A DNA stretch of 63,952 nt, the filler included, from Chrysochromulina tobinii (taxonomy: Eukaryota), in assembly GCA_001275005.1 (NCBI GenBank). It is 5 parts of 5 records of this genome, joined end to end, with 100 filler letters (N's around TTAATTAATTAA, not from the genome) between each part and the next. Parts side by side here need not be neighbours in the genome. Positions count along the whole stretch, not along the records: positions 14,708 to 27,053 come from JWZX01001430.1; 4 more parts are not named here. The stretch is one strand, 5' to 3'. Each line of letters starts with the position of its first letter. Within the stretch, counting starts at the first letter, position 1. This document shows positions 15,522 to 35,200 of the stretch, piece after piece. A program made the translations under genes and the position numbers. The notes beneath the pieces are model-generated. The model worked only from the letters and a program-made list of their open reading frames with translations, did not search any database and was not told the DNA's origin.

Positions 15522-16467
15522 GGGCGCCCACGACGGCGCCCGACGGCACTCCCGCGTGGCCTCCCCTTGTGCCACTTCGGGGCATATGCTCTCGTGGGCA
15601 ATATGGATTGCATGCGGATCAGTTACGGTACAGTGACGGATCACAGTGCTGGGATGCTCGTGAGTGTGAATGCATGCGGATCAGTGACGGATCACCAACT
15701 CGATTGTGGGATGCGACGCGCCCCCTGCCTTGCATGCAAGTGCCCACCACGGCGCTGGTTGGTCAAGTCGATGGTGGGATGCGACGGCGGCGAACATGGA
15801 CGGCGGATGGGACGCTATGATAGAATACGCTATGAATACATCTGTACTGATATGAATGATGGTGCACAATCCCGAAGTCGGAGACTGAAAACAGTCCCGA
15901 AGTCGGTGTGCGTGTCGTGTGGTCGTGTGGTCGGCCTTGTGTGCCCGGCGCGCTCCGACTGCCCACGTCGCACGTCGCACGTGTGGGCCACGGTCATGTG
16001 ATGGCGCGTGCTGTGTCGAAGTATTTCAAGAGGTGCAGGTGCCGGAACAGCTCTCAGCTTCGGATGGTGAGCCGCCCCTGCCCGCCTGCGTTTGCCGTTT
16101 CTCAAATTCCGAATGTAACAAAAAATTGGCCTTGGTGACTCGGGCGTGCGGTGCGTCTTCACTCTGCCGGAACAAGAACGAAGTAACCTACAAAGGTGAA
16201 CATAAACGCTCCGTCGGATGCGGATTGAGGGGCGACGGGCGTGTGGAGCTGGAGCCGCGACACCGCCGAGACCCAGAGCCAGTCGAGCGACGCCCAGACC
16301 CGCGGGACGGTGATTCGGACCGGGCGATTCACGCGCGTGTTCTGTCTGCCACAAGACCGCGCATGGAGCCCTCCGCGGCCTTCCACCCCTCCCTCTGAGT
16401 CTCGCTCTAATTGCCCTAATTGCCCTAATTGCCCTCTGAGTCTCGCTCTCTCTCTCTCTCTCTCTCT

Positions 16468-17844
16468 CTACCCATGGCAGCGGATGCTCTCGGCCGCATT
16501 CTTGGCGGACGACTGGCCGCCCTTTTGGAGCTTCCGTTGGTGGATCTTCTCCGCCGGCCAGAAGACCTTCGCGGGGCGCACCTGTGGGGAGAGTATTGCG
16601 CCGTGGTGAGCACTTGCATGCCGAGCCGGCCAGAAGATCTTCGCGGGGCGCACCTCTGTCACTACCTTACGCCGATAGCGCATCTGACGCTGCTGCTCCT
16701 TCTCAATCGACAAGAGAGCGGCCGCTCGCTGCGCCTCGTTGTGCGGGTACAGGCCCGTGCGGTACTGGGTGCCCACGTCGTTCGCGCCGTCCGGCGTCGT
16801 CGCCATGTTCAGCCGCGTGCTGTCCCAAATTTGGGTCGAGAGAAGAAAGAAGCTTCTCAGAGCTCAATCAGAGTAATCATAGTAATCATAGGTCAACCAA
16901 GGACAATCAAGCGCACACACCTGTCCACGGTCGAAAGAAGCTTATCGCAGAGCGCTTCGTAGCTGACCAGTTTAGGATCATAGGTGAGCATCAGAGCCTC
17001 GGTATGCCCAGTGAGGCCGGAGCTCACCTCCGCATAGCTCGGCCGCTCCGTGCGACCCTGCGTGTACCCGACGCACGTCTGGATCACCCCGGGCAGCCGT
17101 TGGAAGTGCAGCTCCGTCCCCCAGAAGCACCCGCCTGCAATTAGGGCAATTAGGGCAATTAGGGCAATTAGGGCAATTAGGGCAATTAGGGCAATTAGGG
17201 CGAGACTCAGAGGGAGGGGTCCCCCAGAAGCACCCGCCTGCAAAGGTCGCCACCTCATACTTGCCGTCGGCCGAGCGCATGGGCACCTCGCCCGCGAGCG
17301 CCCACGCAGCGGCCTGGCTCGCGAGCGAGTTGACGGCGGCGCCCTCGCTCTCGAGGCCCTCGCTGTAGTGGTCCACTTTGCCCACGCCCGCCATGCGCGC
17401 CAGCTGATAGGACATGTACGCGATGAGGACCACGCCGCCGCTGAAGGACGTGTACGGGAAATCGGACAGCGCGGCCCCGTTTGCGATCCAGCTCACGATG
17501 GCCACATTAGCCGCCAGATCCTTGAGAGTCAACCCAACGATCGCCGTATACGCGATCGCGTACAGCGACGGGAAGGGAATTTCGGCGAGCACGTTCGTCT
17601 CTCCCGCGACCGCCGCCGGCACAATGGTCGGCGGTGGCTCCTTGACCTTTTCGGCCATCCGGAGCGCGTGCGAGCGGACGGCGACCGCTGCCGGCACAAT
17701 GGTCGGCGGTGGCTCCTTGACCTTTTCGGCCATCCGGAGCGCGTGCGAGCGGACGGCCGTGGGTCGCACGCGCGCATGTACGTTTGGCGCGAAGCTTGCG
17801 CTCGCAGCGTGCAGCACACTCAGCAACGAGAAGACAAAACGCAT
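16468..17844 (-). CDS. msrA: Plastid-targeted peptide methionine sulfoxide reductase A (366 aa); exons 17844-17238, 17134-16921, 16819-16654, 16581-16468
   Basis: Spliced product has ATFAGGCFWGTE, VGYTQG, GLTGHTEA, NDVGTQYRTG, FWPAEKIHQ, CHG*. N-terminal ASASFAP motif. Intron phases are consistent; the first intron is GC-AG. Confidence 0.92.
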
Positions 17845-18356: not shown

Positions 18357-21300
18357 CTACAACAGGAAGCGGTCGTCGAGCAGCGTCTTGGCAGCGATGT
18401 TGCGCGACGCCAGCTCGGAGCGCACGGCGCGTAGCACAAAGTCGAAGATGTACGCGAAGAAGATGGCGATGTACGTATTCTGGGTCGCCATGTCGAAGAG
18501 GCAGTACGTGAGCACCATGAACATGACGACGTCGTACTCACGCCCCGCGAGCAGCAGGCGCTTGAACCGCCCCTCGGTGTCTTCGAGGAAGATGGAGCGC
18601 TCGCCGTACCCCTGATGAGGGAGGCAATCAGCATGAGGAGGGAGGCTCTCAGCATGAGGGAAGCAATCAGCATGGTTTCGGTGTCCACTCAGTGATCACT
18701 CAGTGGCGATCAGAGGTAATAGGAGGCCATCAGAAGTAATAGGAGGCCATCGGAGGTAATAGGAGGCCATCAGAGGTAATAGGAGGCCATCAGAGGTAAT
18801 AGGAGGCCATCGGAGGTAATAGGAGGCCATCAGAGGTAATAGGAGGCCATCAGAGGTAATAGGAGGCCATCAGAGGTAATAGGAGGCCATCAGAGGTAAT
18901 AGGAGGCCATCAGAAGTAATAGGAGGCCATCAGAGGTAATAGGAGGCCATCAGAGGCAATAGGAGGCCATCAGAGGTAATAGGAGGCCATCGGAGGTAAT
19001 AGGAGGTCATCAGAGGTAATAGGAGGCCATCAGAGGTAATAGGAGGTCATCGGAGGTTATTCGTGTGCGGGGGGCTCGTCGGGTTTCGTCGCACCATATC
19101 GGGCGGTAGGCCGTACTGCTCGTTGCCTATTTTGGCACGCACGATCGGCTTCTCCGCAGGCGCGCCGCCCGCCGCCCGCTCATCGAGGTTGCTTGCCGCC
19201 TGCGGCGACGGCGTCGCGAGATACCCCATCAGGTACCTGTGGGGAAGGGAGGGCGCCGTGGTGAACACATGCATGCACGGCGTCGCGAGCTACCCCATCA
19301 GGTACCAGAGCAATCAGGGTTCGTCAGGGCTCATCGGGTTCGTCAGGGTTCGTCAGGGTTCGTCAGGGCGAGCACCGATTGGCTCCCGCTGGCGCTTGAG
19401 TCAATCAGTCTCAGGTTCGTCGGGGTTCGTCAGGGTTCGTCAGGGCGAGCACCGATTGAGCTCCCGCTGGCGCTTGAGTCCTTCGTCAGGCGCGGCGCGA
19501 AACCCCTTGGTGCGCACACTGACGGGACCCCGGGTCGTACGCACGTTCCGACGGCCGGGCGGCGGTCGGCGCGTCGGCTCCGCGTAGAGGACGCCCGCGA
19601 AGGCCGCGTCGTACTTTTCGCGCATCCGGCGCGAGAGGTAGATCTCGTACCTGTGGGGAAGGGGAGGGCGCCGTGGTGAGCACATGCATGCAAGGCGGTA
19701 CTTTTCGCGCAGCCGGTGCGCGAGAGGTAGAATCTCATCTCGTATGTACGTTTGTACGTTCGAGTCCGGTGTGAAGCCGCGCGTCGTGACGAGGCTCTCG
19801 GCCTGTGGGGAAAGCGAGGGCGCCGGGGTGAGCACATGCATGCAAGGCGGAGGAGGGCTTCCATTCGAAGAGCGCTGTGGTGAGCGCCTCGAGCTTGAGG
19901 TTGGCGTTGAGGTGCGCCATGTCGGCGATCAACAGCAATCAGCAGCAATCAGTAGCAATCAGCCGCACTCACCTCGAGCTTGAGGTTGGCGTTGAGCTGC
20001 GCCATGTCGGCGTCCGCGTGATCGTGCGCCGAGCGCCCGTGCAGATAGAAGCCGAAGTGCTTCTCCTCGAGCAGGATGCAGCTGATGTTGGTCACCTGAT
20101 GAGGGGCGCAATCATTCGCAATCTGTGAGGCAATGAGTGGCAATCCCCTCGAGCACGATGCAGCTGATGATGGTCACCGCGAGCAGATCGACAAACTTCC
20201 CACAGGGCTCGTCAGGGTTCGTCAGGGTTCGTCAGGGTTCGTCAGGGCTCGTCAGGGCTCGTCAGGGCACGTCAGGGCTCTCACCGCGAGCAGATCGACG
20301 AACTGCCACACCCTGTCCTTGATGCGACGCTGCCAGAAGGCCCACATGAACAGGTACTGGGAGAGGGAGGCTGCGAGGAGGAGGCCGGTCGAGAGGGCGA
20401 AGCGCAAGAGCATGTGCTCGGGCGTCGAGGCGTCGCCGTTGCCTTTCGGGACGAGGCGGATGGCGTCCACTAGCCCCAACCCCTCCTGCGCATGGCGATC
20501 CGAGGTGATCCGAGGCGATCAGAAGCGATCAGAAGCGATCAGAGGTCCTCAGAGGCCCTCAGAGGTAATAAGAGGCGATAAGAGGCGATCTGAGGCAATC
20601 CGAGGCGATCTGAGTCAATCAGAGTCAATCCGCGGCGATCCGCGGCGATCCGAGGCAATCACGTACCTGGACGAAGAGGAGGACGAGGAGGCTGAGCTCG
20701 CTCGAGATCGTGCGAGCATCCTGTGGGGAGAGGGGGGGAGGCGCCGTGGTGAGCACTTGCATGCGCCTCGGGAGAGAGCCTCAGTGACGATCCGACTGAC
20801 CTGCAGCTTGACCCACTCGTTGGCGACGAAGATCGTGCGCCACACGGAGACGGGCGTGCTGCCGCCACCTGCGTGGGGCGGGGGGGAGCGCCGTGGTGAG
20901 CACGTGCATGCACGGAGACGGACGAGATGCTGCTGTTACCGATCTTTTCGCCCGCGTCCTCCTCATCTTTGGCCCCGACGCCGGCGGAGCGCGGCTGCCG
21001 AACACGAGGAGGACAGAGGGGGTCAGTGGCTGATGAGGGAAGCCATCAGTGGCTGATGAGGGAGGAAATCAGAAGGTGCTCACCTGCTCCCAATCAGGGG
21101 CAATCAAGCGTAATCCAGCATAATCAAAAGGTCCTCACCTGCTCCCAATCAGGGGCAATCAAGCGTAATCCAACGTCATCCAAAGTGGCTCACCTGCTCC
21201 CAATCGATGAAGAAGAGGTCGTGCTGCGTCTGCACGAGGAGCAGGTCGATCATTTGGAGGCACTGGGCGATGAAGAGGATGATGATGAAGACCTGGAAGG

Positions 21301-24300
21301 GCATCCACGGGCCGACCATGTACATGCTGTCGAGCGGGCGGGCGACGGGCATGAAGAAGAAGAGTTCGTTCTGAGCTTTGTAGAGGATCATCCACCACGT
21401 ACAGATGAAGTACAAGAGGAAGAAGAAGACGGTGGCGAAAGCACCCGCAACCTGGAAGACCACATCAGGAAGACCACGCGGTGACACGTTGCCATATTAG
21501 GCGACGAGCCGTCAGGAGCAATTAGGGCAGCGCAATCAGCGCAATCAAGCGCCGTCCTGGGCACCTGGCAGAGGACGCGGTGGTAGTCGCCGAAGTTGCC
21601 CGAGGTGCGCTGCACAAGCACGTACACGTAGATGGCCGAGAGGATGAGGCAGAGCACGATGGCGATGATGAAGAGCATATTGATCGTCTGGTCCGAAGGT
21701 TGCCATATTAGGCAATTAATGTGTGTCAGAGAGAGCCAATCATGGGCACCATCAATGGTAATCAAGGGCAATCAGCGCACCTGGCCCGAGTTCTCGAACT
21801 CAAGGGTAATCAAAGGTAATCAAGGGCAATCAGCGCACTTGGTCCGAGTTCTCGAACTCAAGGGTAATCAAAGGTAATCAAGGGCAATCAGCGCACCTGG
21901 TCCGAGTTCTCGAACTCCATCGTGTATGTCATCCGGAAGAGTGCCGGAGCAATCACGCCAGATCGCTCGAGCTCAGCCTCAAACTCGAGGGGTGACGTGG
22001 CGGCGGCGGGCTTGATGATGTCCGCGTACTCGATCTCGAGCTGGGGAGGTAGCATCTGCCGAGGGAGGTGATCAGAGGCAATCAAGGGAGCTTCGATCTC
22101 GAGCTGGGGAGGAAGCATCTGCCGAGGGAGGTGATCAGAGGTCATCGTAGGCTATCAGAGGCAATCAAGGGAGCTGGGGAGGAAGCATCTGCCGAGGGAG
22201 GCGATCAGAGGTCATCGTAGGCTATCAGAGGCAATCAAGGGAGCTGAGGAGGAAGCATCTGCCGAGGGAGGCGATCAGAGGTCATCGTAGGCTATCAGAG
22301 GCAATCAAGGGAGCTGAGGAGGAAGCATCTGCCGAGGAGGTGATCAGAGAGGCCATCAGCAGCACTCACCTGTGAAGGTGTCCCGTCGTTGCTCTTGACG
22401 ATGATTGTGAGCTTTGCCGAGCGTAGGTAACGCACCTGATGAGGGAGGCAATCCGAGGCTCATTAGTGCTCATCAGAGGAGCTGCCGCCGAGCGTAGGTG
22501 ACGCACCGCCTCGGGAAGCTTGCCCGAGGCTCATTAGTGCTCATCAATGCTCATTAGTGCTCATCAGTGCTCATCAGGTACGCACCGCCTCGGGAAGCTT
22601 GCCCGAGCTCGCACCGCCGCCGCCAGCTGAGACGCCCGAGACGGCGTCGAGCACGTAGAAGCGGCGCGTGAGCTGATCGTCAGTCGTGAGTCCCCCCGGC
22701 TTGTTGACGACCTGTGCGTTGCGCTTGTAGTTGGTCACCCGCACCGGGATCGGGTAGAGGAAGCATGAGCCGCTCGACGCGGCGGAGGTGGTCGAACCAG
22801 GGGGAGGGGGCGACGTGGCGGAGGTGGTTGACGCGCCGCCCTGAGCACAAGCTCGCCCGAGCTCCTCGATGGGTGTGAGCGAGTGCTCCCCGGTTTCGTC
22901 ATAGTAGAGGTACCTGATGAGGGGAGGCAATCAGTGGCTGATGAGGGAGGCAATCCGCGACCCTCAGTGGCCATCAAGATGCCCTCGATTTCGCACACAG
23001 GTGCCATCAAGAGGCGATCAAGAGGGTCATCAGGCACGTACATGTCGTACAGCACCACGTCGGTTCGCTGCGAGAGGAGCCTCAAGGCGGGCACCTGTGG
23101 GGAGAGGACGCCGTGGTGAGCACTTGCATGCTGGGGTGGTATCGTCGTCGGTTCACGAGAGGCGCGCAAGGCGAGCTCAAGGCGAGCTCAAGGCGAGCTC
23201 GCACGCACCTCGCACGCGAGCTCCAAATCGGTACCGACATTGAGGAAGGCGGACGGGTCCGATGCACCGCCAGGGCAGAGCTGAAGCTGATCGGAGAGCT
23301 CCTGCGAGATGATGAGGGAGGCAATCAGGGAGGTAATCAGGGAGGTAATCAGGGAGGTCATCAGAGCTGAAGCTGATCGGAGAGCTCCTGCGAGATGATG
23401 AGGGAGGCAATCAGGGAGGTAATCCTCCTGCGAGATGATGGATGAGGGAGGCAATCAGAGGCTCCAGCAGGCCGAAATACAGGCCGAAATACAGGCCGAG
23501 ATACAGGCCGAGATACAGGCCGAGATACAGGCCGAGATACAGGCCGAGAAACGTGCCCTTCCAGCACTCGACGCGCAATCGATGCGCAATATTTGCGCAA
23601 TATTTGCGCAATCAATGCGTACTCTAGGCGCACTCAAGGCGCACTCAAGGCGCACTCGAGGCGTACCTGCAGGCCGAGGTACGTGCCGTTCAGGCTGTAG
23701 GCTGCCAGCAGAAAGCGCAGCCTCGAGCCGGCCGCCATAGGCAGCGCGAGTGTGAACGGGATGGACGGTGCTGCGCGCGTGATCGCTTGGTCGCCCCGAT
23801 CGTAAAAGAGGCCGGGGAGAAACCGCACCTGTGGGGAGAGAAGGGCGCCGTGGTGAGCACATGCATGCTTGGTCGCCCCGATCGTAGAAGAGGCCGGGGA
23901 GAAACCGCACCTGTGGGGAGAGAAGGGCGCCGTGGTGAGCACATGCATGCTTGGTCGCCCCGATCGTAAAAGAGGCCGGGGAGAAACCGCACCTGCATGC
24001 CAGTGGGGAGGGCCATGAGCATGAGCGCGATCTTAGTAAGGAAGGGCACTTGGGCATGCATGCAATCACGCACCCATTCTTCGTTGCTGTCGACCGAGTT
24101 GAGCGCGTTCGAGGCCTTCAGATACTCGAACGCCTTGCATGCATCATTGTCTTCATCGTAGTTGGCGAGCACGCACCTGTGGGGAGAGCAGGGCGCCGTG
24201 GTGAGCACTTGCATGCATAATTGTCTTCATCGTAGTTGGCGAGCACGCACAGGTTGCCGACGGCCTGGCATGCCCGGGTGCCCGCGAGGAGCGTCTGTCG

Positions 24301-25092
24301 GTTCGGCTCCGGCGCGGCGATCGCACGCCGGCACGCGGCAAAATTGGGCTCGAAGAGTTGCATGATGGCTATCGAATCCGTCACGCTCTCAGAGAGGCTG
24401 GCTCCTTGTCCAGGGAGGATGGCGTCGAAATCCTTCTTGAAGTCGAGGCGGATGCTGTCCGGCCGCGTGCTGCCTTCGGGCTGGTACACGCACGACTCGT
24501 CACGCCCCCAGAGCCCGCCGGTGTGAAGCCGGTTTGTGAAGGCCGGCGACGGGCACGCGCACACGTAGCCTGACGTGGCAGTCGCCTGCATGAGCGCATC
24601 GGAGCAGTCGACGCAGACGCCATTGGAGGGCTGCTGGCCAGTGGGACAACGCCGGCACTCAAAGCTCGGCAGCAGTGCGCCGTTCTCGTCGCGTTCCACG
24701 AGCACTTGGCCCGATCCGGCCGGGCACCCGCACGTTCTGCGCACGAATCCGGGCACGATCTGGCTTGTGTAGATCGTCGAAGTGCCGTTGCACAAGAGGC
24801 AGCTCCGACCATCGCGCGTCGCGGCTTGGTTTGCCGGGCATGCGTTGCACGAACCCGTCGTCGTGTCACCGTCCGAGAGCGCCCTGCTCCCCGAGCACTG
24901 GCATGAAGTGCCGAGCGAGTCGGGCGCGGTATTCGTAGGGCAATCGTAGCAGCGGAGCGTGGAGACGTCGAGATACTGGTTCGGGCCCGTGCATGCCGGG
25001 TAGGAGAAGGCGTCGTACTGGCCGCGAGCCGCAGGCGGCAGCGCGACGAGAAGCAGCAGGCGCAAGTCGAGAGCCTTCATGAGTTCCTTCAT
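18357..25092 (-). CDS. TMEM67: Meckelin (TMEM67/MKS3), ciliary transition-zone protein; 19 exons, 1111 aa
   Basis: Cys-rich N-terminus, ACQAVGNLCVL, HDLFFIDWE, VSVWRTIFVANEWVKLQ, QFVDLLAVTNIS, GFYLHGRSAH, RNIAAKTLLDDRFLL*. One continuous frame results from removing introns 24177-24250, 23829-24073, 23302-23666, 23095-23208, 22914-23041, 22436-22585, 22056-22369, 21688-21896, 21452-21564, 20995-21193, 20869-20939, 20721-20800, 20486-20666, 20096-20284, 19803-19972, 19651-19749, 19237-19452, 18612-19094. Confidence 0.93.
18709..19060. repeat. Intronic 20-bp minisatellite (AGGAGGCCATCAGAGGTAAT), ~17 copies
   Basis: Directly visible tandem array inside the last meckelin intron. Confidence 0.95.
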
Positions 25093-30369: not shown

Positions 30370-31603
30370 CCAGCTCCAGCGCCACCAGCAACAGCAGCGG
30401 CCAGAGGAGCGACGCTTATGCGGCGGCCAACGGCTCGGCCGACGGCCTACGGCTCGGCACACGTACATGTAACGCTCTGCTCGCGGCGCTCGTCGCCTCG
30501 GGAGAGGTGAGCTCGGCGACCCATGTGCTGCTGAGCGACGTGATTGCCTCTGATGACCTCGAATGACCTCTGATGGCCTCCCTCATCAGGTGAGCTCGGC
30601 GACCCATGTGCTGCGCGCCATGGAGGAGGGTGCCGCGCACCCGCCGAATGCGTACTCGTACTGCATCATGATGAGCGCGTATGGCGCGCGCAACCAGCTC
30701 GGGAACGCCGAACGCTTGTGGAAGCTGCTCTGGCAGCAGGGGTGGGTGGACACCGTCGTTCTCAACTGTTGGCTCCAGGCGTGCATTACCAACGGCGAGG
30801 TACAGCGTGCGCTCCTCGCGCCGAGCCTCTGGGCATCTGCATGCACGTGCTCACGATGGCGCTCGCTCCCCTCTCCCCGCAGGTGCCGCGTGCGCTCCAG
30901 GCGTTCCAAACGGCCAAAAAGGAACTTCCCAGCCTGCAGCTGGACAAGGTGACCTTCGGGACCCTCATCAACGGCCAACTGAGCGACGTGATTGCCTCTA
31001 ATGACCTCTGATGCCCCCCCTCATCAGGTGACCTTCGGGACCCTCATCAACGGCCTCACCCGACCCTACGGCGCGAACAACAATGTGGCGAGCGCGCGAC
31101 GCGCCCTCCAGCTCTGGGCCGAGATGCGCCTGCTCGGACTCGCGCCCGACGCGCGGATCGTCACGCCGCTCTTCGACGCATGCACCCGGCACGTGGGTGT
31201 CGAGACAGTGCTCAAGCTGCGCGTCGAGCTCGTGCGCATGGGCTGGAATGTCGCCGCACTCCGCCCCCACGACCAGGTGCTCATCGCCGCGCTACCTTCA
31301 CTCAAAGAGGTGCTTCGCGATCAGCCCAAGTGGGAGGCTCTCGGCGTGCGTCTCCCTCCCACGCTGGGCTCCGAACAGGCGCAGCTCAGCCTCACCATGC
31401 CCGCGCTCCCGACCGCCGTCGTCCCTCCCGCGGCGACGTCGGTCCCACGGGCCGGCCGTGCGGAGTTTGAGCACGACGACGGCACGGAGGTGCCGTGCGT
31501 CGTTGAGGATGACGAGTGCGCCGCGCAACCCGCGAGCGCAGGCGAGGAGATCTGGGAGCGCCATGCGTGGAATAGCATGGACGGCTCCTGGAGGTACATA
31601 TAA
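28947..31603 (+). CDS. Pentatricopeptide repeat (PPR) protein with signal peptide, 803 aa; introns 30507-30589, 30800-30882, 30949-31027
   Basis: PPR motifs TFCILIKGYGRAG, TLNALLDAYARNG, TYNTLIKGYS, PNEVTYSTLIHAC, VTFGTLINGL; removing the three phase-0 introns restores the frame. Confidence 0.9.
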
Positions 31604-32284: not shown

Positions 32285-35200
32285 ATGGCCACCACCAAGA
32301 CCGAAGAAGGCGTCCACGTGCTGGGTTCGGGCAATACCTTTGAGCGCCCGTTGACGGTCAACGAGCCTTGTGCCTTCTCCTTTGCCTTCTCTGTGGACGG
32401 CAACCTACCGCTCGAGTTCTCGGTGATGCTCCGCGCCAAGGGCAAGGACATGCAGCTGCTGCCAGCAAGTAGATATGCGGAGCTCGACGGAGAGGTGCTT
32501 CTTCCGGGTGCCGGCACGTGCATCGCACGGTGGCACAACCCGTCCGGCTGGGTGTTTAATGCGCCGGCGGCCACGCTGTACTTCAAGCTGCAGGTGCTCA
32601 AGCAGACCCCGATGCCCGCACTCAAGAGCCCGGCCGCCGCGCCGGCGCCCCCTGCGCCCGCCGAGCCGGCCAGCGCCGAGCCGGTCGAGCCGCCGAGCCC
32701 GGAGCCCCCCTCGAGCGCCATGCTCGCCGCCATCGACGCGGCCGTCGAGGTGGCCAAGGCGAAGGCCGCCGGGGCAGCTAATGCCGCGGCGGCTGAGGCT
32801 GGGGCGGCCGAAGCGGTGAGGGCGAAGGCCGCCGCGGCGGCGCAAGCTGAGGAGGCCGCTGCCGCGGCGGCGCAAGCTGAGGAGGCCGCTGCCGCGGCTG
32901 CGGAGCAGGCAGCCGCGGCGGAGGCTGCCAAGGCGGAGGCGGAGGCGGAGGCGGCGGCCATGGAGGCTGCGAAGGCGGAAATGGAAGCGCAGGCGGCGGA
33001 GGCGGCGGCCGCGGCGAGCGCCGCCCTGAGCGCCGCCATCGAGGCAGCCATCGAGGCAGAGGCGGCGGAGAACCCCGGGGAAGCGCCCCCACCGTGGGTT
33101 CCGTCAACTTCGTCGGTTGCATCATGGGTGACCCACGAAGGGCTGCTTCAGAAGCGCACGAGCGCGAGCGTGCCGGCCGGGGGCATACACGAGGTGTGAA
33201 GTGAAGCATGGGCTGTGAAGCGCACACAGTTGCTCCGCCTGATCGAGCTCTGATGTGCTCTGAGTGCGACTGATGGCCGCTGAGTACATCGTAATTGTGG
33301 CTCCGCCCCTGAGCTCAAGCTGTGATGACCCCTAATGACCTCTGATGACCCTAATGACCTCTGATGACCCCCGATGACCCCTGATGACCTCGAACCGCCT
33401 CCAATGACCCCTGATGACCTCTGATGACCCCTGATGGCCTCCGATGGCCTCTGATGGCCCCTGATGACCTCAAACCGTCTCCAATGGCCTCAGGTGAAGC
33501 TGACTGTGCCGAGTGGCGGCGCCCTCCTGCTCACCACGGCGCCCGCTCCCTTCCCCACAGGTGAAGCTGACTGTGCCCAGTGGCGGCGCCCTCTTCCTCT
33601 CGTGCACGCTCGGACCGAACAAGCCGGCGTCCTTCTCCGCGTACATGGCCCCGCTCACGACGGCGCTCCACGAGCCGCCCGCGACGGCGCGTGGGGAGAC
33701 GTACGCGGTGGTGCGCGCGGCGCCGTCGGAGATTGACAAGCTCATTGGGTACCCTCTGCCAGCGGCCGCCGAGCATGCTCTCTCTGCGAGGCACGCGAAC
33801 GCGACGCTCCTCGGCAAGGCGGCGAGAGACGCTGCGATCGAGCTGGAGTGGGCCTACGAAGTGAATACCAACGGCCAGCGGGCCTTCACAGAGGCCATCG
33901 AGCTGACCGATACGGCGCTCGTGCGCCTCGAGATCGACGGTGCGTGCGAGCTGACGCTGTCTTGGGAACATGTGTCCACGACGTGGATCTTTCGCGATAG
34001 TGAGACGCCGTTGGCGTGGAGCGCGACGCTGCTGCGCCTCGTGCCTGACATGGGCGCTGAGCTGGGCGCCGGCGGCACACCCACCGCCCCCTCAGCCACC
34101 ACCACCACCTCCTCCTCCTCCTCCTCCTCCTCCTCCTCCTCCTCGCCGCCACCGCCGCCGCTTCCGCAACCCGCGTCGCCAACAACGTTGTCACCGCAGC
34201 CGCCGCTGCCTCCACAACTAGCCACCGGCACCACCGGCGTCACACGCCCACACTGGTCGCCGCACCGGTCGTCGCCGCTCGCCCGTCCCGCCCAATACGA
34301 CGCGCCCGATACGGCGCGCGAGCTCGCGAGCTCGCCGTCGGCGTCCACGCCGCCCGCCAACCCGGCGCCTGCTCAACACGACGCGCTCGATCAGGCACCC
34401 ACGCCGCCGTCGGCGAGCTCGCCGCCGCCGCCGCCGCCCACGACGGCGGGCGCCCAATACGACGCCCTCATGCAAAAGGCGATGGACGAAGCTCTCGCTA
34501 AGGCTCTAGCAGGCGCGACTTTGACGAAGCCGGCGTTCGTCAACGTCGCGCCTGTGCTGGCGGAGGCGCCCGCCTCGGCGCCCGCCTCGGCCGCTCATCA
34601 CGGCGCCACGGCGCCCATCACGCCCGCCCATCACGCCGCCCACCACGCCCTCACGTGCCGCCCCTGCGCCCGACACGGCGCCATCTCCAGGAACGGTTAC
34701 CTCCGTCGAGAGGACCACCGGCGCCGTGGCGGGCGCATCCGTCGAGGATAGGGGCGCTTCCCTCGTCGCCTCTCTGAGGGTCGATGCCGAGTCTGCTGTA
34801 GCTGACGACGGCGAGGGCGAGGCGCCCCGCACCGGCTTTCGAACGCGGATGCCGCCGCCCTCGCCCTCGCCCTCGAACGAGAATGTCCGTGACATGCCCT
34901 CCAGTTTGCGCCTGCCTTTGGCGCAGGAGGACGAGGACGAGGACGAGGACGAGGAGGACGACGACGAGGACGAGGAGGACGACGAGGATCTTTCGCAGAT
35001 CACCCGCCACCCCTCCCTCGGCGCCGACGGCGGCGACGGCAGCCTGCGCTACTCGACGTCTGCCGAGTGGGCATTGATTGAGCAAGGGAAGCTGAATGGG
35101 GTGCCCGCCACGACGCTCGACGCTCGAGAGCCCACCGAGGCGCCCAACACGACGCGGTCGCTGCCCGGCCCGGCGCCCCCCCCTGACCCTGAGGAGGAGG

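Follow-up and report, generated by a model that had tools for sequence, protein, structure and literature searches.

Abutting cassette-intron units with AG|GT joints in a Chrysochromulina tobinii meckelin gene, a probable by-product of duplication

Intron 2 of a meckelin gene of Chrysochromulina tobinii (24073-23829, minus strand; 245 nt) consists of three abutting pieces of 81, 82 and 82 nt, and both joints (23993/23992 and 23911/23910) read AG|GT. The locus therefore raises the question whether these joints are working ratchet points at which the intron is removed piece by piece, as an earlier note on this DNA proposed, or whether they follow from the way in which the intron was made. The question was addressed in a window of 63,952 nucleotides, the whole stretch of DNA that was analysed, which joins several genomic contigs by N spacers, and with RNA contigs, related proteins and metagenome contigs. 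The gene and the parts needed here are:

18357..25092, minus strand: meckelin (TMEM67) gene, 19 exons, 18 GT..CAG introns, 1111 aa
24177..24250, minus strand: intron 1, a single unit of the cassette family (exon-start copy plus cassette), with no AG preceding its GT
24074..24176, minus strand: exon 2, from an RNA joint and the alignment to protein P0012
23993..24073, minus strand: first piece of intron 2, 81 nt, GT..CAG, degenerate and cassette-like
23911..23992, minus strand: unit 1 of intron 2, 82 nt, a 44-nt copy of the exon 3 start plus a 38-nt acceptor cassette
23829..23910, minus strand: unit 2 of intron 2, 82 nt, differing from unit 1 by T>C at position 24
23667..23828, minus strand: exon 3, from RNA and the alignment to P0012

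At six checkpoints the gene model agrees with the offsets of RNA contigs (960, 1267, 126, 179, 181 and 3), and protein P0021 matches it gap-free over residues 400-1111 (707/712 identical). When the translation was searched in five pieces, Pfam PF09773 scored above the cut-off in one of them, at the C-terminus, and one more match was found mid-protein. The layout of intron 2 is as the earlier note had described it. The cassettes of units 1 and 2 are identical, and the sole difference between the units, the T/C at position 24, is synonymous in the exon frame. Unit 2 is the source of the acceptor used in the mature mRNA, and the first 5 bases of the 81-nt piece are also those of exon 3.

The RNA evidence consists of assembled contigs of mature RNA, with runs X12, X14, X15 and X17 mapping at intron 2. 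Rows X18-X21, each with a share of 0.03 or less, were given no weight as evidence, including on habitat. Contigs that skip exactly 245 nt, with CT..AC ends, are present in three of these four runs (X12, X15 and X17), and the spliced protein aligns to the homolog P0012 with no gap across the junction. All 245 nt are thus removed, as had been claimed. Introns 1 and 2 are both excised precisely, restoring the coding sequence (RNA; P0012 alignment); for intron 1 this is read from the offsets of X15 record 21. The frame was also said to force the removal of all three pieces. Retention of one or two of the 82-nt units does shift the frame, but the 81-nt piece retained alone is in frame and stop-free, so that frame logic alone is insufficient to force its removal. 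A coding role of the 81-nt piece was rejected: the RNA speaks against it, as do the alignments to P0012 and P0020, in which the piece opens a gap of 26-27 residues.

We consider it probable that the intron 2 stack is a by-product of duplication and is spliced mostly in one step, from the outermost donor to the outermost acceptor. Removal of the whole 245 nt in three of four RNA runs speaks for this reading. Against it stands the fact that mature RNA hides the route: intermediates and mis-spliced forms may be degraded or lost from contigs, and unproductive cuts in the control introns described below could likewise be degraded. Moreover, each 82-nt unit carries a full signal set at normal intron size. 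Finally, the only spliced contig of the fourth run, X14, skips 81 nt, and the only contig that continues through the exon copy enters the cassette.

This X14 joint (23987-24069) occurs in one 54-letter contig of depth 2.7 with a short side of 24 letters. The 24 letters are the same in unit 1 and exon 3 and unlike unit 2; the contig thus excludes a join to unit 2, and a first-step intermediate and full splicing look the same in it. As a candidate for the predicted intermediate the joint was rejected, because its short side lies within the 44 nt common to unit 1 and exon 3. X14 further contains the 81-nt piece in unspliced form (depth 3.7), and one contig covers unit 1 (depth 3.1), as would be expected from unspliced RNA or from DNA; the exon 3 contig begins at exon position 57. 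The layout of the X14 contigs is compatible with a first-step intermediate and equally with full splicing plus unspliced RNA. A joint 24074-23910 was absent from the three joints listed in the four runs, and this absence means little, since contigs drop rare forms. Mapping over a wide stretch of the meckelin gene, which included a DNA run, was crowded by other cassette copies, left 187 joints and 2778 pieces out of its listing, and is silent on rare forms.

Is intron 2 an isolated case? A cassette search of metagenome contigs returned at least 142 stretches, and one more was found in viral contigs. Similar cassette introns occupy many unrelated coding sites (at least 181 distinct cassettes from at least 142 loci plus the window). 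For 181 distinct cassettes with acceptor and flanks, taken among the matches listed from these loci and the window, we compared the sequence upstream of each cassette with the start of the downstream exon. A copy of the exon start scoring above the 99th percentile of shuffled pairs preceded 109 of the 181 cassettes, and exon sequence 70-130 nt further on, used as control, passed the same threshold in 10/175 among the matches listed. The combination of exon-start copy and cassette, which the earlier note had described, thus exceeds chance. Among the matches listed, the copy starts exactly at exon base 1 in 91/109 cases and is 16-58 nt long, the median unit length is 78 nt, and the two bases after the acceptor are GT in 144/181 and GC in 16/181. 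The cassette itself contains a branch-like CTCAC, pyrimidines and CAG, with pyrimidine tails that differ between copies. Exon-start copies together with acceptor-bearing cassettes indicate that the donor comes from the exon copy and the acceptor from the cassette.

The target does not have to provide an AG. Among the matches listed, 58 of 102 copies (starting with GT, GC or otherwise) had no preceding AG or GT pairing, and 55 begin with GT or GC without an AG. An AG before the copy was no commoner after intron-like (14/33) than after exon-like sequence (25/69; p 0.66; among the matches listed), by a motif rule that mislabels some rows (29/181 exon starts also carry the motif). Identical cassettes occurred in only 4/16118 between-locus pairs among the matches listed, a rarity that makes unit 2, with a cassette identical to that of unit 1, best read as a local copy of unit 1. 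Exon copy and cassette start overlapped by at least 2 bases in 7/15 non-tandem in-register cases among the matches listed, against 14% under the null; the test covered 19 rows, with 4 tandem stacks left out. No inverted ends were apparent by eye among the printed cassettes. A short fixed target duplication, as in DNA-transposon introners, is absent, the copies being 16-58 nt long; by PMC9860276, not every introner needs such a duplication or inverted ends. Terminal direct repeats, a transposase and an enzyme for template-switching synthesis were likewise not seen.

Within the window, related inserts were found at further places. A second stacked site had been described in the earlier note, and its sequence is as claimed:

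33194..33560, plus strand: 300-nt repeat-rich piece followed by a 67-nt unit (33-nt exon-start copy plus cassette), predicted from sequence

Its AG|GT lies at 33493/33494, and in the predicted frame the reading is kept only if all 367 nt are removed. A PPR gene (Pfam) on the plus strand has three short introns (30507-30589, about 30800-30882 and 30949-31027), each beginning with a duplicate of the start of the exon that follows. A second type of cassette is found in two of the three, and introns of this build thus come from at least two cassette families. At approximately 17135-17237 (minus strand) lies a 103-nt GC-AG intron-like insert that contains a copy of 19 nt of the exon start as well as a 9-nt tandem array; the surrounding gene presumably resembles a methionine sulfoxide reductase. 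A cassette copy without acceptor is found at 15710-15770 (plus strand) in apparently intergenic DNA, with an approximately 20-nt direct repeat on both flanks, and the element looks like it also lands outside genes.

How could the AG|GT joints have formed? An intron of the cassette family leaves its target in the DNA twice, as donor and as exon start. A second event at either target copy, or slippage between the copies, would then bring an AG and a GT into direct contact, in that order and without an intervening exon. Because the intron regenerates its own target, such a second hit or slippage yields AG|GT automatically. Unit 2 would be a slippage copy of unit 1. The units themselves might be made by DNA synthesis that switches template via short homologies into the cassette and re-enters at a GT motif, a step that we propose tentatively; the base overlaps at the switch points and the junction-crossing copies in introns 6 and 14 fit such template-switching synthesis. 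These two introns each hold a 45-50-nt copy that crosses the spliced junction, joining upstream exon end and downstream exon start, as if from an intron-free form or from several template switches. The earlier note had suggested that new mini-introns insert exactly at existing splice junctions. Units do pile up there, with up to five at locus L051, whereas unit 2 of intron 2 seems to have been copied in tandem on the spot and not newly inserted.

For splicing, we propose that the spliceosome would ignore the inner splice-site copies, as under exon-centred site choice, and that donors rebuilt at fresh junctions would not be reused, a safeguard that animals owe to the exon junction complex. This complex keeps regenerated 5' and 3' sites from being used in flies (PMC8184009). 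From human data, PMC9225289 describes exon definition as favouring outer sites through exon-centric proximity, and intron definition as pairing the nearest sites; the latter would speak for stepwise removal.

Other meckelin introns with inner copies of their own junctions provide controls:

23302..23666, minus strand: intron 3 (control), GA after the inner copy of the acceptor (23387), excised whole
22436..22585, minus strand: intron 6 (control), repeats its spliced junction internally, with CG|GT at 22506 (P0021)
22056..22369, minus strand: intron 7 (control), four inner acceptor copies, each followed by AT (P0021)
21688..21896, minus strand: intron 8, donor-side duplicates with AA|GT (21838) and AG|GT (21780)
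20995..21193, minus strand: intron 10, the third site of the earlier note, 55+55+89 nt, donor-side duplicates with AG|GT at 21138 and 21083
20096..20284, minus strand: intron 14 (control), repeats its spliced junction internally, with CG|GT at 20177
19237..19452, minus strand: intron 17 (control), complete inner 69-nt GT..CAG unit with TG before it, excised whole

Across the 18 meckelin introns, inner junction copies read AG|GT in five cases, AG|AT in four, CG|GT in two, and AG|GA, TG|GT, AA|GT and AG|GC in one each; eight further matches belong to short tandem arrays within introns 3 and 4. Introns whose inner copies are other than AG|GT are still excised whole in the main mRNA, as seen from RNA offsets and P0021. 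Whole removal of intron 3 is given by the same 150-letter offset in X12, X13 and X15 and that of intron 17 by X13 record 13; the RNA offsets at introns 8 (126), 10 (179) and 14 (181) equal those of the model, and X12 record 9 terminates at 22055, at the edge of intron 7. In introns 3 and 7 the inner acceptors match the one that is used, but GA or AT follows. For intron 10 the same layout as in intron 2 had been claimed. The two 55-nt GT..AG units are real; they are, however, donor-side duplicates followed by an 89-nt rest, with an inner AG that copies the upstream exon end, unlike the layout of intron 2. The acceptor of intron 8 (21688-21700, minus strand) is likewise similar to the upstream exon end, both terminating in TCGGACCAG, and an exon-end copy appears to serve there as 3' splice site. 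Within intron 6, a few contigs of DNA run X1 and RNA run X13 have G instead of A at position 22477, which may stem from another locus or allele.

One could suppose that the AG|GT joints are true ratchet points and that the 245 nt can be removed only in three steps. Two perfect AG|GT joints with intact acceptors speak for this, and elsewhere stacks reach five intact units: L051 (2100-2440) has five consecutive 72-74-nt units, each with an intact cassette and CAG|GT. (That stack is followed by an array of donor-side 39-nt repeats.) We nevertheless regard obligatory recursion as highly improbable. An inner AGGT is absent from longer meckelin introns (314, 365 and 483 nt), so that no length limit forces piecewise removal; equivalent stacks carry AG|GA, AG|AT or AG|AC; and the inner AG has been lost from some stacks, the inner joint being AA|GT in L019 (about 1470), L046 (about 1466) and L047 (minus strand, about 150). 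In L039 (minus strand, 1508-1590) an inner end reads GG|CC where the outer one is AG|CC. These altered inner ends possibly reflect decay of inner acceptors. The longest meckelin intron (18612-19094, minus strand; 483 nt) consists largely of a 20-nt repeat in 17.6 copies.

A milder version accepts the origin by duplication and holds that, at AG|GT joints, a sizeable share of transcripts loses units singly, by ratchet or inner unit first, with the same mRNA as outcome. By sequence, any cut from a GT to a later AG would leave a smaller valid stack, and the units match the modal intron in length (median 78 nt, among the matches listed) and have donors in range. The X14 contig layout is compatible with it, and in Lipomyces starkeyi one complex intron is excised in one or two reactions, as far as described in PMC7138796. 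If inner joints were used in this way, GT or GC might be expected to be enriched after inner acceptors. We found 66 cassette pairs 25-110 nt apart among the matches listed, with an acceptor-like end on both members in 21 and an inner cassette without acceptor in 26. In stacks keeping the inner AG, GT or GC follows in 21/25, and in the background of acceptor-like sites in 200/238 (84%; among the matches listed), that is, there is no enrichment above background at this small sample size and by sequence comparison alone. The 25 stacks remained from 33 rows after two duplicates were dropped and six without inner AG set aside; three of the rows (L004, L017 and L055) are possibly single introns, and the rule misses four AG|GT stacks (L018, L033, L067 and L083), with which the count becomes 25/29.

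The missing enrichment argues against optional stepwise removal, as does the absence of the 24074-23910 joint, at low power, and as do the donors that splicing rebuilds. Ten of the 18 mature meckelin junctions rebuild N|GT, some as strong donors, and these persist in the mRNA; at junctions 1 and 6 the rebuilt 9-mer equals the donor just used and is nevertheless retained. Elsewhere in the gene, rebuilt donors are thus not reused in the main mRNA. At intron 2 the genomic donor of the 82-nt unit scores 7.0, within the range of true donors. The donor rebuilt at the intron 2 site, by contrast, scores 0.6, near the bottom of the leave-one-out true donors (0.4-11.4; only 18 donors), and a 5'-to-3' ratchet requires the reuse of exactly such a donor. 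We therefore judge removal of units one by one in a sizeable share of transcripts to be possible, yet on the unlikely side. The earlier proposal of a working AG|GT ratchet finds no support here: inner copies other than AG|GT are as common in the meckelin gene, they pose no bar to whole removal, and AG|GT is not enriched.

The number of units could itself be questioned. If the two-unit count were an assembly artefact, for example two alleles chained, the genome would hold one unit. The count does come from the assembly of the window alone, the intron 2 site being in none of the 142 loci listed, and the single difference between the units is synonymous in the exon frame, as for an allele. On the other hand, one X14 contig stops exactly one base before the variable position, as at a fork; such stacks are present in many other assemblies; and at least one AG|GT joint, between the 81-nt piece and unit 1, is covered by X14 contigs. 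An artefact is in our view quite improbable.

A bolder formulation would be that an intron-making element with unusually long target duplications re-hits its own footprint and builds stacks of up to five introns separated by zero-length exons, with unit-by-unit removal as the main route. We hold this to be doubtful. If true, intron gain would have given rise directly to recursive splicing in a eukaryote with short introns. On the preferred reading of duplication and one-step removal, an intronic AG|GT is expected from duplication alone and is by itself no evidence of recursion. Whichever route is taken, the stacks amount to a natural experiment with duplicated splice sites, repeated at dozens of loci, that tests by what means a protist with short introns selects among inner and outer splice sites that are identical. 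They also test how re-splicing at the mRNA donors rebuilt by cassette introns is avoided. An acceptor cassette with a 16-58-nt exon copy, in turn, extends the known introner and tandem-duplication routes of intron gain.

We found no published description of the cassette-intron family or its stacks; the supplements and online tables of PMC9860276 and PMC12130899, which lay outside the search, may list the family. Its closest parallels are introners that carry the 3' splice site and obtain the 5' site from the target-site duplication, as depicted for Symbiodinium in PMC9860276 (Fig. 2B), and the acceptor-carrying classes 4/5 and 6/8/10 of Polarella in bioRxiv 10.1101/2020.10.14.339549. As in these, the acceptor comes with the cassette, the GT donor is provided by the duplicated target, and splicing restores the coding sequence. 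In Symbiodinium and Polarella the duplication described there is 3-9 nt long, whereas that of the cassette family varies from 16 to 58 nt. In the Chrysochromulina introner that PMC9860276 describes, the duplications are 4 bp long and it is the 5' site that the element carries, opposite to the cassette family.

Introns can also be gained via tandem genomic duplication of AGGT-containing exon sequence, as outlined in PMC3443670. There, too, a duplicated exon stretch yields the splice sites and AG|GT arises from duplication; the cassette family differs in that it needs no AG in the target and takes its acceptor from a common cassette. From its sequence, the cassette family works like an acceptor-carrying introner crossed with intron gain by tandem duplication, with much longer and variable duplications. 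A more distant analogy is provided by Replitron-1, whose insertions show variable-length target duplications and a fixed orientation at a short target (PMC10288648). The variable duplications are alike; unlike Replitron-1, the cassette family shows neither terminal direct repeats nor a transposase, and the available part of PMC10288648 does not describe intron-making by Replitron-1.

Recursive splicing with zero-length exons shares with intron 2 a 3' site directly followed by a 5' site. Recursion was said in the earlier note to be known mainly from very long animal introns. It is not confined to these, since in Schizosaccharomyces pombe recursive use of inner sites in the 336-nt SPNCRNA.445 intron is reported, from spliceosome-bound RNA, in bioRxiv 10.1101/226894. 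In the recursive-splicing systems as there and elsewhere described the sites are conserved, whereas in intron 2 they are young duplicates, unenriched, and no unambiguous intermediate was seen in the contigs (low power). Fungal stwintrons and complex intervening sequences are short and are removed by consecutive reactions, in one case also by a single reaction, according to PMC7138796; like them, intron 2 is a short composite intron, one whose layout would allow consecutive removal reactions. In a stwintron an inner intron interrupts the donor, branch point or acceptor of the outer one. The three pieces of intron 2 abut with unbroken ends and interrupt no signal, and hence, unlike in the stwintrons described, no order of removal is forced.
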